15,578 nucleotides of DNA, taken from the IMG/VR virus record IMGVR_UViG_2534682222_000014, positions 1-15,578 of that record; one strand, given 5' to 3'. Shown here in pieces: positions 4,327 through 8,358 of this stretch (positions are counted from its first letter, which is position 1; each line of letters begins with the position of its first letter). The notes beneath the pieces are model-generated. The model was given only the letters and a program-made list of their open reading frames with translations. It searched no databases and was not told the origin of the DNA. The position numbers were made by a program, and so were the translations under genes. This DNA comes from a virus. Taxonomy: Duplodnaviria > Heunggongvirae > Uroviricota > Caudoviricetes.

Positions 4327-5642
4327 GCGGCCTCTCCCCGCATATTGCGAACAAGTTCAGAAGCGGCAGTAATGATTTCGCTGGTGGCCGTTCGTTCCAG
4401 CCAGAGTTGATTGATGTTGGCTTTCAGCTTGTTCTGCTGTGATTCATCCAACATGTCAGCGCCATCTACCTGGTTGAACACAATCCCAACCTCCAGTGGC
4501 CAGATACGGGACTCGGGAAGCGGATCCGCTACTGGTTTAGCTTTCTCACGGATGTGCATGCGGATCTGGCGAATATTGGACCATCTGGAAACATCCAGGC
4601 TTCCCATGGCTGCAATGAAATCAGTGCTGTTCATGCCATATTCACCGGATGCTTCAAGGGCAACAGTGCGAATACGTTCCGACATATCCAGGCGCACTGC
4701 AGCGTCATCGAATTCAATCGACAACAACCACTCATCCACACCGAACAAAATACTCTCACGAATAAGCAGCTTCGCTTTGTCGATCGTTAATGGTGATACC
4801 TGAGTGAATTCCGGTGCTTCAACAGAATCCGCCGCCCAGGTATGCCCAAACTTCGATTCACTGAATGTGTATTCTTCTTTATCGCCAAACGCAGCTCTAA
4901 CGCATGCCCACGCCTCGACGCCGCTGACATCAAAAATATCTTTCTGAGTGAGTGGCAACTCAGCTTCTGGCTTATCAGCTGCAGGAGGTGTGGCAGTTGC
5001 AGGTTGAGACTTGCTGGCAGCAAATTGCGCCAAAGTCATAAACGCCCGCCCTTTTGCCTCCAGTTCTGTGCGGTTGATATAGCTGAACCGCTCAACACGC
5101 CACGACTTATCGAATACAGCTATGGCACCGGCAAAAAACGCGCTGGTGGGTTTCTGTTTTTCGTCAGCAGGTACAAACCACACAGGCAGATCGAACCCAA
5201 TACGACCACGAATGAATACAATGTGATCGGCATCTTCTGGCCACCACGTTTCACTCGGCGCGGCTTTTATCAGGAATACATAGCGACCGCCCTTCTCGCG
5301 CTGGGCTGCTGCGTAGTTCATGATATGCGTCATGCCGGTGATCGCCTGCTTCTCGTGGTACTGCGAACGGCTATACGGAGGGTTGCCATAACCAGCGCCG
5401 CCCAGTTCTGCCAGACGTTCAGACCAGTGCTGTGTCAGCGCGTTATCTTCGGCGGTGTACCATGCCGGGCACTTCGCGTTGTCGTCGTCAGCAAACAAGT
5501 CCAGAGCTAATGGACCAAATAGCGCGTTGATCCCCCAAAAAAGCAGATCCGGTGTCCGCCACTGATCGCCAACTTCTTTCAATTCGTGAGCTGGTTTGCT
5601 ACGCAGTGCCGCCAGCGCCTGGCAATATTTATTGGTCATCAT
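4323..5642 (-). CDS. Phage Dam-type N6-adenine DNA methyltransferase fused to a roughly 220-aa C-terminal domain of unknown function
   Basis: 439 aa. N-terminal half contains LDLFADDDN and the catalytic NPPY motif of N6-adenine MTases. C-terminal half (from about residue 215) has no motif I can assign. Start ATG overlaps the stop of the upstream initiator gene as ATGA. Confidence 0.7.
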   Translation of the reverse strand: MMTNKYCQALAALRSKPAHELKEVGDQWRTPDLLFWGINALFGPLALDLFADDDNAKCPAWYTAEDNALTQHWSERLAELGGAGYGNPPYSRSQYHEKQAITGMTHIMNYAAAQREKGGRYVFLIKAAPSETWWPEDADHIVFIRGRIGFDLPVWFVPADEKQKPTSAFFAGAIAVFDKSWRVERFSYINRTELEAKGRAFMTLAQFAASKSQPATATPPAADKPEAELPLTQKDIFDVSGVEAWACVRAAFGDKEEYTFSESKFGHTWAADSVEAPEFTQVSPLTIDKAKLLIRESILFGVDEWLLSIEFDDAAVRLDMSERIRTVALEASGEYGMNSTDFIAAMGSLDVSRWSNIRQIRMHIREKAKPVADPLPESRIWPLEVGIVFNQVDGADMLDESQQNKLKANINQLWLERTATSEIITAASELVRNMRGEAA

Positions 5643-6505
5643 GAACGGAACCCCGAATTTTCTGGCAGTGAGTAATCAACACTCTGGAAGTTTGCGCGGC
5701 TGGCTGAGTTAGTCTCCCATTTGCCGTTAACGCGTTCAGGCCGGCCAGCACTGGACCATTTGGTCGCGCTTTGCAGGTAACCAGGGAAGTTTTTTGGAAT
5801 GAACAGAGTTGCCGGGCGGAGGTATTGCGCCTGCTCGCTATCACGCCAATCGGCATTTTTGTAATCCACTACCAAGCACAGGTCATCAACAGTGAATTGT
5901 TCCCGAAGACGGGCGCGAATATTCTCCAGCGACGTGCTGCATACCTGGTAGCGTGAGCCAGTAGTCTGATTCAGGTAAGACAAAACCTGTCTGGCCTGAT
6001 CAGTAATCACAACCTCAGGGTCGGGTTGCGCCGCAACCGGACAAGAGGGTTTTGAAGTTACTTGTGGATCTTGTTTTGATTTTACTGACGGATCCCCGCC
6101 AGATTCTGACGGGTCAAAACCATCGTTTTTGCCAGATTTCGACGGGTCAGTTTTTGAGGCGTCAAATTTTGATGCGTCAGATTTTGACGTGTCAGAATCT
6201 GACAGTTGAGAAAATGCGGCAGTCTGAAGTTTCGCCACATTCAGCCGATACACGTTCGAAGCATTACGGTTACCATTACGGCGCTGTGTACGTGTGAGCC
6301 AGCCATCTTTTTCAAGCTTTGCGATTGCCGTTCTGATAGTGCTCGGGCCTGCGCCAAGCTGGCGAGCAATAGTTTCAATTGACGGCCAGCACACACCTTC
6401 ATCGCTGCTGAAGTCAGCAAGGCGAGCCATGATCGCAACACTGGACAACTTCATGCCCGACGCTGCGCAACCATCCCATACGTAGCCGGTTAATTTAGTG
6501 CTCAT
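5639..6505 (-). CDS. Replication initiation protein (O-like; N-terminal HTH, repeat linker, conserved phage C-terminal domain)
   Basis: 288 aa. N-terminal winged-helix-like region (PSIETIARQLGAGPSTIRTAIAKLEKDGWL), low-complexity S/K/D linker with 5-aa periodicity, and a C-terminal domain of the conserved-phage-C-terminus replisome-organiser type. Sits where lambda O lies, downstream of cro/cII. Confidence 0.7.
   Translation of the reverse strand: MSTKLTGYVWDGCAASGMKLSSVAIMARLADFSSDEGVCWPSIETIARQLGAGPSTIRTAIAKLEKDGWLTRTQRRNGNRNASNVYRLNVAKLQTAAFSQLSDSDTSKSDASKFDASKTDPSKSGKNDGFDPSESGGDPSVKSKQDPQVTSKPSCPVAAQPDPEVVITDQARQVLSYLNQTTGSRYQVCSTSLENIRARLREQFTVDDLCLVVDYKNADWRDSEQAQYLRPATLFIPKNFPGYLQSATKWSSAGRPERVNGKWETNSASRANFQSVDYSLPENSGFRS
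6087..6205. repeat. Iteron-like direct repeat array (candidate replication origin) inside the initiator gene
   Basis: Four in-phase tandem 15-mers at 6141-6200 (gacgggtcagttttt, gaggcgtcaaatttt, gatgcgtcagatttt, gacgtgtcagaatct), further copies at 6108-6122 and 6201-6205, and a weaker one at 6087-6101. They encode the SKxDx linker repeats. Confidence 0.6.
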
Positions 6506-6674
6506 GATCGTCCGTTATCTCCCTGAACTTTTGCCTGAAATGCTCAAGTGGGCTGAAGCATTCGTGTGGATAGCCATCTCGCAGGTAGATAACGCGCTGT
6601 GTTTCTGGCTCCCAGCGGATAACACGGACTGGCACTCCGCGGTGATCTTTGAACCTTCGGTTAAGTTCGCGCAC
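6495..6674 (-). CDS. Small hypothetical protein (59 aa), possibly DUF4222-like; overlaps the initiator start
   Basis: Below the track threshold, found by hand. GTG at 6674 with GGAGGG about 10 nt upstream; product VRELNRRFKDHRGVPVRVIRWEPETQRVIYLRDGYPHECFSPLEHFRQKFREITDDHEH; stop TAA 6495-6497 overlaps the O-like start by 11 nt. Family assignment is from memory only. Confidence 0.4.
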   Translation of the reverse strand: MRELNRRFKDHRGVPVRVIRWEPETQRVIYLRDGYPHECFSPLEHFRQKFREITDDHEH

Positions 6675-6846
6675 AGGCGTTTTGCCCTCCGATAGTAGAC
6701 CCCCACAATTACGGCAGCCTGGCTGTGGTTACATGACACCCAGCGATTTGATACTTTGCATTCATACCGAAACAGCGGAAGACCCGGCACCGGGATCATT
6801 CGTAGTTGCGGTAAGTGAGGATTTACGATTAAATTGCTCATGCGGA

Positions 6847-7398
6847 TTATTTCTCCATACTCGAAGAGTTGTTCGCCAAGGCGCCCGGAGCTGCACACTC
6901 GCGGGCGTCACTCTTTTCAGCGACACAAAAAACTCGGTAAAGCAGCGTGACGTGCTCCTGAAACTTCGCGATCACCTGGTAGCTGTTCTCCTCTATCTGA
7001 GCACGCTCATCTGCGTCAATCACCCCATCAGCAGTAGCCTTTCGCACAAAGGTAGAATGACGACCAATCCATTCAATGGACTCCATCAGGCGCTGGTTAA
7101 TATCGGCGTTATCCAAATCATCAACATCTGCCAGCGGTACGAATACGCCTTGAGAATGGCGCGCAACGGCATCAGCAATATGAGTCGAACCACCAGCACG
7201 CTGTAGAACCATCGCCCAACCCAACGGGAATATCTGATCGCCCTCAGTGCGGAGACGGTTGAACAACCCGTTCTCTGAAGTTCCTAACCATTCCGCGGCC
7301 TCGGCATACCCACCAGGAAGGTCGGTAATGGTTTTTTTTATTGCGACCACCAGCCAGGCTGGCTGACGTTCGACTTTCCAACTAGGTTCATTACCCAC
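6847..7398 (-). CDS. CII-like phage regulatory protein (CP76-type) or YdaT-like protein
   Basis: 183 aa, GTG start with AAGGGGG 6 nt upstream, 23 bp downstream of the cro stop. Assignment rests mainly on position after cro plus general resemblance to the longer CII (CP76) family. Confidence 0.45.
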   Translation of the reverse strand: MGNEPSWKVERQPAWLVVAIKKTITDLPGGYAEAAEWLGTSENGLFNRLRTEGDQIFPLGWAMVLQRAGGSTHIADAVARHSQGVFVPLADVDDLDNADINQRLMESIEWIGRHSTFVRKATADGVIDADERAQIEENSYQVIAKFQEHVTLLYRVFCVAEKSDARECAAPGALANNSSSMEK

Positions 7399-7421
7399 GG
7401 CTAACCCCCTTGTCTCTGTGG

Positions 7422-7625
7422 TTACTGCTTGTGTTGAGAATTGTTAAGTTTGCTGTAGAGAGAAGCGTCGTATTTCAACTTCCCGTTCGTAATTCTTTCA
7501 ATGTAAAGAGCCTGTTTTTCTGGGATTACTTCACCCCATTGACATACGGCACTGTGAGTTACCCCTAAGGCAACTGCGGTTTTAGAAATGCCGCCGTAGT
7601 AGTCGACGACTGTCCCTTTATGCAT
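7422..7625 (-). CDS. cro: Cro-like repressor (P22 Cro type)
   Basis: 67 aa, ATG preceded by AGAGGA. HTH segment ISKTAVALGVTHSAVCQWGEVIPEK closely resembles P22-type Cro. Divergent from the cI-like gene across a 100-bp operator region. Confidence 0.7.
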   Translation of the reverse strand: MHKGTVVDYYGGISKTAVALGVTHSAVCQWGEVIPEKQALYIERITNGKLKYDASLYSKLNNSQHKQ

Positions 7626-7725
7626 GGTTTGAATCCTCTTTAGTTAGCATTCTTACATCGTATATGGACAGCATACTTACGTCAATAAAATGTAAGATTG
7701 CTAACGTACATTCCGAGGAGATTTT
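7626..7725. promoter_or_regulatory. Divergent oR-like operator/promoter region (pR for cro, pRM for cI)
   Basis: Minus strand: TTGACG -35 (plus 7685-7680) with TATACG/TACGAT -10 candidates upstream of cro. Plus strand: TGGACA (7665-7670) and TAAAAT (7686-7691) upstream of cI. Half-site CTTAC/GTAAG at 7652-7656, 7676-7680 and 7692-7696; 9-mer ATGTAAGAT at 7690-7698. Confidence 0.5.
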
Positions 7726-8358
7726 ATGGATACCGTTGGCAGCAGACTGAGATTTAGAAGAAAGCAGAAAAAACTTACCCAGCGCGATGTGGCTGAGTGG
7801 GCAGGAGTAAGCGCGTCTGCTGTGACCCAGTGGGAAAGTGATTTAACAAAACTTTCTGGTGAGAACTTGATATTGGTGTGTAAATGCCTTCAGTGCTCGC
7901 CAGAATGGTTGGTTTTTGGTTCAGGCGATATCGAAAATGGCATTAACATCAACTTGATGTCTGCCAGAGAGGTCCCTCTCATATCATGGGTGCAAGCTGG
8001 TAATTGGACGGAAGTAATTGGAAATCCTAATAATGAACAAGTGAAAACCACTCGAAAACTTTCTGATTCCGCCTTTGCTTTGAGGGTTAAGGGAGATTCA
8101 ATGACTTCTAGCCAGGAGTTGAGTATTCCTGAAGGTTCTATTGTTATTGTTGAACCAGAGTTCGGCTTCGTGGATGAGGCAAACGGTAAAATTGTCGTTG
8201 CTCAAACGGTATCTGGTGGTGAGGCAACTTTAAAAAAGCTGGCGATAGACCCACCGTTTTCGTACCTAATCCCACTGAATCCTGCGTTTAAACCCATTGA
8301 GGTGAATCAAGAGACCAATCTAATTGGGATAGTTAAACAAATTATCATTGACCTTTAG
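7726..8358 (+). CDS. cI: cI-type prophage repressor (N-terminal XRE HTH, C-terminal LexA-like S24 peptidase)
   Basis: 210 aa, GAGGAG RBS. HTH (LTQRDVAEWAGVSASAVTQWE), Ala-Gly cleavage site (VQAGNW), Ser nucleophile in KGDSM and Lys in ATLKKL, typical of RecA-stimulated autocleaving repressors. Confidence 0.85.
   Translation: MDTVGSRLRFRRKQKKLTQRDVAEWAGVSASAVTQWESDLTKLSGENLILVCKCLQCSPEWLVFGSGDIENGININLMSAREVPLISWVQAGNWTEVIGNPNNEQVKTTRKLSDSAFALRVKGDSMTSSQELSIPEGSIVIVEPEFGFVDEANGKIVVAQTVSGGEATLKKLAIDPPFSYLIPLNPAFKPIEVNQETNLIGIVKQIIIDL

Follow-up and report, generated by a model that had tools for sequence, protein, structure and literature searches.

Our analysis of a 15,578-nucleotide stretch of viral DNA (IMG/VR record IMGVR_UViG_2534682222_000014, Caudoviricetes; hereafter the window) indicates that about 430 bp of it (6495–6920) are shared by three overlapping genetic elements: a gene of the ymfM family, a gene for a small protein of the DUF4222 family, and a cis-antisense small RNA (sRNA). 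The locus belongs to an e14-like lambdoid prophage and forms its immunity and early-right region, with the interval as the ymfL–ymfM–replication junction; DNA that is 100% identical to positions 6400–6950 occurs in two Escherichia coli chromosomes. We consider it probable that the whole arrangement is best described as a ymfM-family gene with a DUF4222 gene nested within it and an antisense sRNA resembling the OOP RNA of phage lambda. In what follows, frame A denotes the long reading frame of the ymfM-family gene, frame B that of the DUF4222 gene, which is the −1 frame of frame A and lies one base upstream of it, and frame C the remaining frame of the same strand.

The nested gene belongs to a recognized family. 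A preliminary description of this DNA, made from the letters alone, had pointed to a 59-aa open reading frame (ORF) with a GGAGGG ribosome-binding site and an end 11 nt within the gene for an O-like replication initiator, and had compared the product to DUF4222-type prophage proteins. All of these features are present: the 59-codon ORF lies on the minus strand, the GGAGGG is 10 nt 5′ of its GTG, and the initiator ATG is at 6505. The product matches PF13973 over profile positions 5–52 of 53 (61.9 bits against a cut-off of 27, E=4e-17) and phrog_1343 (E=1.5e-33), and a search with the peptide returned 111 homologs, mostly of 59–70 aa, showing that the frame is conserved in relatives. Size alone is uninformative here, as ORFs of at least 40 aa number 121 in the window, and it is the family match that decides. 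The gene had been called unannotated, which does not hold: the Prokaryotic Genome Annotation Pipeline (PGAP) calls exactly this ORF (WP_003034732.1) in both identical chromosomes, with the label "DUF4222 domain-containing protein", and does likewise in every related prophage inspected. The 59-aa gene is an ordinary, already annotated DUF4222 member. Its start codon occupies the same position in nearly all of 65 distinct junction sequences, being ATG in most loci, GTG in the window type, and TTG in e14, and a purine-rich element resembling a Shine–Dalgarno (SD) sequence lies 5–12 nt 5′ of it in most junction variants. From this conservation we infer that DUF4222 is translated from its own SD and start codon. 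AlphaFold returns a small beta-barrel (predicted local distance difference test, pLDDT, of 82), and the protein is predicted to adopt a Tudor/SH3-like fold.

The approximately 170 bp between this gene and the YmfL-family gene upstream (6675–6846) had been described as a possibly regulatory gap holding only an implausible Ser/Cys-rich frame and a hairpin. Instead, the interval encodes the N-terminal domain (N-domain) of a ymfM-family protein: a conserved ORF of 108 aa has its 5′ half here, substitutions follow the pattern of protein-coding DNA, and the upstream 167 nt of the N-domain (6675–6841) make up nearly all of it. The frame had been delimited as 6515–6898, with its real start being the ATG at 6841, 5 nt past the ymfL stop; an SD sequence, GGAGAA (6856–6851), lies within the last YmfL codons, and both start and SD are at a conserved position. 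The Ser-rich portion lies not in the supposed gap but in the 3′ half of the frame, over the DUF4222 gene, and the frame A stop falls 9 nt 5′ of the O-like ATG. A search with frame A returned 49 proteins, mostly of 108–112 aa, whose first ~57 residues are well conserved (LPQLRMIPVPG.PLFRYER...NRWV.CNHSRA..IVGVYYRR) and whose second half is variable and rich in Ser, Thr, and Gly. In the non-overlapping 5′ part, the ratio of non-synonymous to synonymous polymorphism (pN/pS) is 0.33 in frame A, compared with 0.90 and 1.23 in the other two frames, a pattern that marks the 170 bp as protein-coding in frame A. By this measure the first ~62 residues are under purifying selection; the first ~13 of them are also constrained by the putative antisense promoter described below.

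Structure prediction divides the frame A product at the same place, with residues 8–62 modeled at a pLDDT of about 90 as three beta-strands and a long helix, and residues 64–108 at about 41, consistent with disorder. Profile comparison aligns the N-domain with that of YmfM from the E. coli K-12 element e14 (hhalign probability 99.0%, E=3.2e-18, 55 columns), and frame A matches phrog_1170, the YmfM family (E=8.7e-15); pairwise BLASTP of the window N-domain against that of e14 gave no match, so that the homology is visible only at the profile level. Phages LLS and Flotzy (~80% DNA identity) annotate the 108-aa ORF as a coding sequence at this position. PHROGs lists frames A and B as two separate families of unknown function, and NCBIfam has no model for either. 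The N-domain also occurs alone, as proteins of 52–68 aa in other phages, and such forms account for ~40% of 109 family representatives; "fusion" representatives of 191–821 aa were ignored as low-complexity out-of-frame readthroughs. The CCGG-centered palindrome in this interval, CCCGGCACCGGG, which had been put forward as a hairpin, exists, but it consists of the codons CCG GTG CCG GG(T) for PVPG, a motif that homologs of frame A conserve. As no T-tract follows, it is not a terminator; the hairpin is a by-product of coding. A simple terminator scan of 6400–7500 found none at the palindrome, and no counterpart of the lambda tR1 terminator, which had also been suggested, on the sense strand.

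Beyond the N-domain the two genes use the same nucleotides, and, on comparison of diverged relatives, both protein frames bear the selection signatures of a nested out-of-frame pair. We gathered 126 loci by DUF4222 homology alone, 46 from bacterial genomes of many genera and 80 from viral contigs; owing to this choice, the sample is not biased in favor of an open frame A. The unique loci number 121, and 115 of them were analyzed after six atypical ones (Providencia, Ewingella, and L042) had been set aside. Counted from the DUF4222 start, frame A is open in 115/115, beginning with an ATG at −167 to −182 and reaching a stop at +157/+160, across many Enterobacterales genera including Pantoea, Erwinia, Mixta, and Phytobacter; stops are always present in frame C, and in the Ewingella loci that were set aside frame A continues open to +184. 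With the DUF4222 protein and the local codon usage taken as given, an uninterrupted frame A across 52 codons has an average probability of 0.064. Codon choice in the DUF4222 gene depends on context: where a Val, Leu, or Ile codon precedes a codon starting with A, it is GTY, CTY, or ATC in 341 of 341 cases and R-ending in none, while in safe contexts G- or A-ending codons make up 85% of Leu, 27–38% of Val, and 18% of Ile codons. Along a minimum spanning tree of 89 distinct overlap sequences, which approximates a proper phylogeny, 155 transversions are synonymous in DUF4222; since 16.6% of the possible transversions of this kind would create a frame A stop, 25.8 such events were expected, and none was observed (P about 6e-12). 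Hence the frame that had been dismissed as implausible is kept open by selection, even though its amino-acid sequence in the overlap drifts freely.

These findings bear on the view implicit in the PGAP annotation, in which DUF4222 is the sole gene, preceded by ~170 bp of non-coding regulatory DNA and overlapped by a long frame that is open by chance. RefSeq indeed calls DUF4222 alone and leaves the same ~170-bp gap behind the YmfL gene in every related E. coli prophage inspected, the tail of frame A is not conserved as a protein, and the gap does hold a regulatory element, the putative antisense promoter. We nevertheless regard this explanation as very improbable, given that pN/pS in the gap is low in frame A and near 1 in the other frames, that the encoded domain is confidently modeled and homologous to the YmfM N-domain, that this domain is found elsewhere as a separate small gene, and that a conserved start and SD directly after the ymfL stop are combined with stop avoidance in frame A.

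The opposite simplification, in which the long ORF is the sole gene and DUF4222 a spurious family built on the wrong frame, corresponds to the annotation of K-12, where ymfM alone is called, and of LLS and Flotzy, which carry the 108-aa ORF alone; that cloned ymfM causes filamentation could also be taken in its favor. Nucleotide variation in the overlap is distributed quite differently from what this would entail. Diversity by DUF4222 codon position is 0.337 at third positions, compared with 0.068 and 0.103 at the other two, and pN/pS is 0.17 in frame B against 2.08 in frame A, identifying DUF4222, on the substitution pattern, as the frame whose amino-acid sequence is protected in the overlap. 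Its start codon and SD are conserved, its fold is confidently predicted, DUF4222 genes stand by themselves without the ymfM frame in two loci described below (L135 and L136) and in the E. coli prophage Sp7, and the function of the Sp7 protein, RgdR, was shown genetically. We consider a ymfM-only locus extremely improbable. The preliminary description had opposed translation of the overlapping 6515–6898 frame to that of the 59-aa frame, but this is a false alternative, as the evidence supports both.

A single product could, in principle, also arise by programmed −1 frameshifting, with translation starting at the ATG at 6841, passing through the N-domain, and slipping before 6674 to yield an N-domain–DUF4222 fusion. 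In its favor, frame B is offset from frame A by exactly one base in the upstream direction and is open for 18–54 nt 5′ of its start in most loci, and a few database proteins (P0092, P0143, and P0145) join both frames. These proteins, however, switch frame at different internal places and resemble indels or assembly errors, the open stretch of frame B upstream is only 3–6 nt in some loci (L029 and L042), and frame A between 6728 and 6674 contains no X XXY YYZ heptamer. We rejected this mechanism on the absence of a slippery heptamer and on the conservation of the DUF4222 start codon, which together with its SD is found at frame B position 0 in nearly all junction variants. Frameshifting would further give no reason for the absence of frame A stops over the 157 nt past the shift site, and the N-domain and DUF4222 occur as separate genes; we give it hardly any credence.

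The separate occurrence of the two modules is best seen in Citrobacter koseri (L135) and in a metagenomic contig (L136), where a Rha/ANT gene lies between an N-domain-only ORF of 59–63 aa and a standalone DUF4222 gene. By this comparison the N-domain and DUF4222 modules are separable. In these split loci (L135 2501–3559 and L136 2501–3550) the insert is of antirepressor type, the DUF4222 sequences are divergent, and the end of every ORF abuts or overlaps the beginning of the one that follows. Stops in the +1 frame occur in some standalone DUF4222 genes, with three in L136 and seven in rgdR.

The third element lies on the plus strand. A lambda OOP-like antisense RNA had been guessed at within the supposed gap, and a homolog of the K-12 sRNA ECS003 does start inside the interval; it runs out of it, however, into the YmfL gene, and its putative promoter lies in coding sequence. 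ECS003 is a cis-antisense sRNA opposite the ymfL/ymfM junction of K-12, detected by deep sequencing, as a 78-nt read block, and by Northern blot, as a band of ~70 nt (Shinhara et al. 2011, PMC3175480). Its sequence (supplement file 4 of PMC3175480) begins CAUGCG, corresponding to the reverse complement of the ymfM start codon, and is the L026 row of our alignment A2, to which window positions 6839–6926 (plus) align; the 5′ end of the window RNA would accordingly lie near 6839. The RNA is complementary to the start codon and SD of the ymfM-like gene and to the last ~70 nt of the YmfL-like gene, with a folding energy of −27.2 kcal/mol (z=−2.46). Its putative promoter is located inside frame A codons 3–12. 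Among 49 unique homologs, the −10 element is TAAACT, TAAATT, or TACACT in 46, the −35 element is TTGCGG or TTGCGA in 45, and the spacer is 18 nt in 48. Synonymous sites covered by the promoter are frozen, Leu4 being TTA in 42/42 and Ser3 being AGT 41 times and AGC once.

The terminator of this RNA pairs 6880–6890 with 6898–6909 (one bulged G) around a loop at 6891–6897, and the hairpin is followed by a U-rich tail at 6910–6918, ACUCUUUUC. In 40 diverse sequences, 95.2% of the cells are paired, with compensatory double changes in 6 of 11 pairs (26 cells); 0 of 500 shuffles were as good, and slid registers gave 33–50% pairing. The full hairpin is present on the plus strand in 40/40 sequences, and G:U variants weaken the opposite strand only. 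Taken together, the promoter counts and the covariation indicate that the putative antisense promoter and the terminator are conserved across genera. The terminator DNA also encodes the conserved C-terminal YmfL motif DARECAAPG. The hairpin (6880–6909) and the most conserved YmfL C-terminal motif (SDARECAAPG) are thus the same DNA, and the motif may be conserved for itself or through RNA structure.

Several observations weigh against our interpretation. For this phage, the translation of either frame and the transcription of the sRNA are predictions based on comparative data and on e14. The antisense promoter agrees with the consensus at only ~7/12 positions, and a simple scan of both strands over 6400–7500 misses it; the rules of that scan exclude both this promoter and the bulged hairpin with its 7-nt loop. 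An Rfam scan of 6200–7700, with E up to 1, returned no family for the antisense RNA. The mean hairpin energy is equal between strands (−19.9 versus −20.1 kcal/mol), and the assignment of the terminator to the plus strand is based on the G:U variants, the U-tract, and the K-12 transcript rather than on mean energy. The sequences compared are phylogenetically related, and the counts are therefore not fully independent. As natural controls, standalone DUF4222 genes are weak, those of L135 and of Providencia (L049 and L050) having 0 or 1 stops in the +1 frame. Division inhibition was shown for the e14 version alone, whose N-domain is a distant relative of that of the window. Finally, the frame A tail shows no amino-acid conservation (pN/pS 2.08) and is predicted to be disordered, and since ~40% of family representatives consist of the N-domain alone, the tail is not generally needed for N-domain function. 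Two readings could account for the open tail: a disordered functional tail, or delivery of ribosomes.

Why might a freely drifting tail be kept free of stops? In the second reading the gene map is unchanged, but only the N-domain is functional, and the tail is stop-free merely so that ribosomes reach the O-like start, by termination–reinitiation or as an anti-polarity device. The stop of frame A is fixed at +157/+160, 9–12 nt before the next start, whichever gene follows (O-like, Rha, or ymfN); where the modules are split, the end of the N-domain ORF likewise overlaps the start of the gene behind it; the tail drifts and is disordered; and the SD of the O-like gene is distant. DUF4222 ribosomes, however, also end beside the O-like start and could supply the coupling: the abutting, overlapping layout of these two genes is compatible with translational coupling, as the preliminary description had proposed. 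The tail itself (frame A residues ~57–108, for example ITAECQSVLSAGSQK) is rich in Ser, Thr, Ala, and Gly, and its composition departs from a codon-usage null in all 102 unique sequences, with Ser/Thr/Ala/Gly/Pro at 54.6% versus 43.1% and hydrophobic residues at 21% versus 32.7%. DUF4222 third positions are C-rich (0.368 versus 0.297 expected) and T-poor (0.181 versus 0.287), which makes the frame A tail richer in the former residues and poorer in the latter. This composition hints at selection on the peptide, with codon bias as another possible explanation. We treat a tail that serves only to carry ribosomes as a serious contender, if a somewhat doubtful one.

The closest characterized counterpart is ymfM of e14 (b1148, 112 aa), which occupies the same position in K-12 and is annotated as "cell division inhibitor YmfM". 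It has been identified as sfiC, and the cloned gene inhibits FtsZ-ring formation and causes filamentation (Ansari et al., bioRxiv 10.1101/2020.11.19.390815). As in the window, e14 ymfM lies between a YmfL-family regulator and a replication gene, is of similar length (112 versus 108 aa), has an N-domain homologous by profile, overlaps through its tail a 59-aa DUF4222 ORF in the −1 frame, and has its stop likewise close to the downstream start, 12 nt ahead of it. The two N-domains are of different sequence types that BLASTP does not match. The nested K-12 ORF (L008 4502–4681, 59 aa, TTG start, GGAGA SD, Pfam E=8.6e-19) is not annotated. Both the pBAD24-ymfM clone and the library clone (ymfL′ to ymfM to ymfN′) contain it, and it is lost when ymfM is deleted. 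Because clones and deletion alike affect both frames, the e14 division phenotype is not assigned to one of them, and in the papers reporting the filamentation screen the active fragment was not narrowed below ymfL′ to ymfN′.

It is conceivable that the locus is a true dual-coding ymfM/DUF4222 pair across Enterobacterales, e14 included, and that the SOS-associated division block depends wholly or partly on the nested DUF4222 protein, possibly by binding to RNA polymerase. The predicted Tudor-like barrel may then act in the manner of CarD, the C-terminal domain of UvrD, or the RNA polymerase-interacting domain of Mfd, and may be pleiotropic like RgdR. We offer this extension as a speculation that we consider unlikely.

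RgdR (ECs1581), encoded by prophage Sp7/CP-933C of enterohemorrhagic E. coli, is the sole characterized DUF4222 protein; deletion, complementation, and point mutants showed that it activates LEE1 and represses motility, weak non-specific DNA binding was observed, and an RGD tripeptide was reported to be important for its activation of type III secretion (Flockhart et al. 2012, PMC3378721). RgdR matches PF13973 (E=2e-23) and shares with the window protein the core RV.Y.R.GY..EC..P...F (BLASTP, 44% identity over 27 aa, E=4e-7), and both are small, basic prophage proteins. RgdR is longer, 99 aa with N- and C-terminal extensions against 59 aa, and its RGD motif is not in the window protein, which, matched by eye, has M-R-E-L at the position of M19-R20-G21-D22, with only the Arg in common. 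The rgdR gene, unlike the window gene, is not nested in another ORF, but both lie immediately 5′ of a replication gene that they overlap, a primase gene in one case and the O-like gene in the other. In E. coli O157:H7 Sakai, rgdR (ECs_1581, L137 8305–8604) is directly 5′ of the DNA primase gene with a 4-nt overlap. This shared setting hints that DUF4222 genes precede replication genes in unrelated prophage types, P4-like and lambdoid, and may have a role linked to replication or early transcription.

Two systems of phage lambda offer further comparison. OOP RNA is antisense to the 3′ end of cII and has its promoter just downstream of that gene. Like ECS003 and OOP, the window RNA would be short and transcribed leftward, has its putative promoter just downstream of a CII-like gene, is complementary to the 3′ end of that gene, and has its intrinsic terminator inside it. 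In contrast to OOP, the putative window promoter lies inside a coding gene (ymfM codons 3–12), and the RNA would also mask the SD and start of that gene; the likeness to OOP is one of position. In the Rz/Rz1 pair, a small gene with its own SD and start is embedded out of frame in a longer one, and, as proposed for ymfM/DUF4222, both frames of this lambdoid nested pair are maintained. Unlike Rz1, the nested gene of the window runs on for 20 nt beyond the outer gene; what is constrained in the outer frame is its openness, and perhaps its composition, but not its sequence, and the ymfM N-domain and DUF4222 modules also occur unlinked in related phages.

On the basis of these comparisons, we propose the following scheme. 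Loss of the repressor would lead to rightward transcription of cro, ymfL, ymfM/DUF4222, and the O-like gene. Ribosomes in frame A would read through the nested gene, producing a protein with a disordered Ser/Thr/Ala-rich tail, stop 9 nt ahead of the O-like ATG, and probably be delivered to the weakly SD-equipped O-like gene, while DUF4222 would initiate independently and terminate 8 nt inside the O-like gene. In the lysogen, the antisense RNA would pair with the ymfL/ymfM junction and so keep down expression of the CII-like protein and of the ymfM product, which is potentially toxic, in parallel to the action of OOP on lambda cII. By analogy, the product of the ymfM-like gene may inhibit cell division, an effect reported for e14 ymfM; DUF4222, like RgdR, may be a small regulator; and the sRNA may down-regulate ymfL and ymfM in the fashion of OOP.

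What is the relevance of this arrangement? Each of the elements is of a known kind, but their ymfM/DUF4222 pairing appears to be unreported: our searches of the available literature turned up no publication that connects ymfM to DUF4222, to overlapping genes, or to ribosome profiling. Prophages across the Enterobacterales share the arrangement, and one of the genes involved is a K-12 gene that currently attracts interest: ymfM of e14 was recently identified as the long-sought SOS division inhibitor sfiC in experiments with DNA that also encodes most of an RgdR-family protein. Annotation is split, with K-12 and some phage records calling ymfM and RefSeq PGAP calling DUF4222, and the comparative evidence indicates that both are maintained. 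The same DNA is put to triple use by two protein frames and a putative antisense promoter, with the terminator inside a third gene. With its measurable signatures, namely frozen synonymous sites, stop avoidance, and covariation, the locus is well suited to testing gene finders, which overlook genes arranged in this way. What had looked like a regulatory gap in the window becomes a defined gene and a defined sRNA.

Table 1. Positions of the elements of the ymfL–ymfM–replication junction and of neighboring genes in the window.
Feature	Position	Strand	Basis or detail
LexA/CI-like repressor	7726–8358	plus	
cro	7625→7422	minus	
YmfL-family (CII/CP76-like) regulator	6847–7398	minus	NCBIfam NF041471 phage_reg_YmfL, E=2.7e-54; Pfam Phage_CP76, E=3e-9
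OOP-like cis-antisense sRNA, ECS003 homolog, about 76–80 nt	6839–6918	plus	homology to ECS003
Intrinsic terminator of antisense RNA	6880–6918	plus	covariation
Putative antisense sRNA promoter	6806–6835	plus	−35 TTGCGG 6806–6811, 18-nt spacer, −10 TAAATT 6830–6835
ymfM-family ORF (frame A), 108 aa	6515–6841	minus	ATG 6841, stop TAA 6517–6515
Frame A N-terminal domain, residues 1–62	6656–6841	minus	pN/pS, predicted fold, hhalign
Palindrome CCCGGCACCGGG	6783–6794		PVPG codons of frame A
GGAGGG, SD-like, for DUF4222 gene	6685–6690	minus	within frame A codons
DUF4222 gene (frame B), 59 aa	6495–6674	minus	GTG 6674, TAA 6497–6495; PF13973
Dual-coding stretch, frame A tail over DUF4222 gene	6515–6674	minus	selection signatures
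O-like replication initiator (HTH_36 + Phg_2220_C)	5639–6505	minus	Pfam
Dam-like methyltransferase, 439 aa	4323–5642	minus	Pfam Dam domain, residues 19–199 only

Around the locus (Table 1), the order of transcription is repressor, cro, YmfL-family gene, interval, O-like initiator, and Dam-like methyltransferase, with the repressor on the plus strand and the others on the minus strand; the YmfL-family gene is also annotated by PGAP in the identical genome. The O-like ATG lies 9 nt past the frame A stop and 8 nt ahead of the DUF4222 stop, frame A and the O-like gene are in the same reading frame, and an SD for the O-like gene is present only at a distance.

Opposite the DUF4222 gene, a 65-aa ORF is open on the plus strand (6498–6695), and its K-12 counterpart extends to 90 aa (L008 4406–4678, minus). 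It is probably a by-product of the constrained sense sequence.

Within the O-like gene, 5 to 7 direct repeats with a 15-bp period occupy 6098–6209, with a consensus of about GTCAGATTTTGACGNGTCA and internal dyad symmetry. The repeats, found where the O-like protein has its low-complexity SDSDTSKSDASKFDASK linker, look like the iterons of lambdoid origins, which would here lie within the gene for the initiator.

In the Dam-like methyltransferase, the C-terminal ~240 residues are without a family match. In related loci, the position of this gene is taken by other genes, carrying a PAPS-reductase-like annotation or encoding MT-A70.

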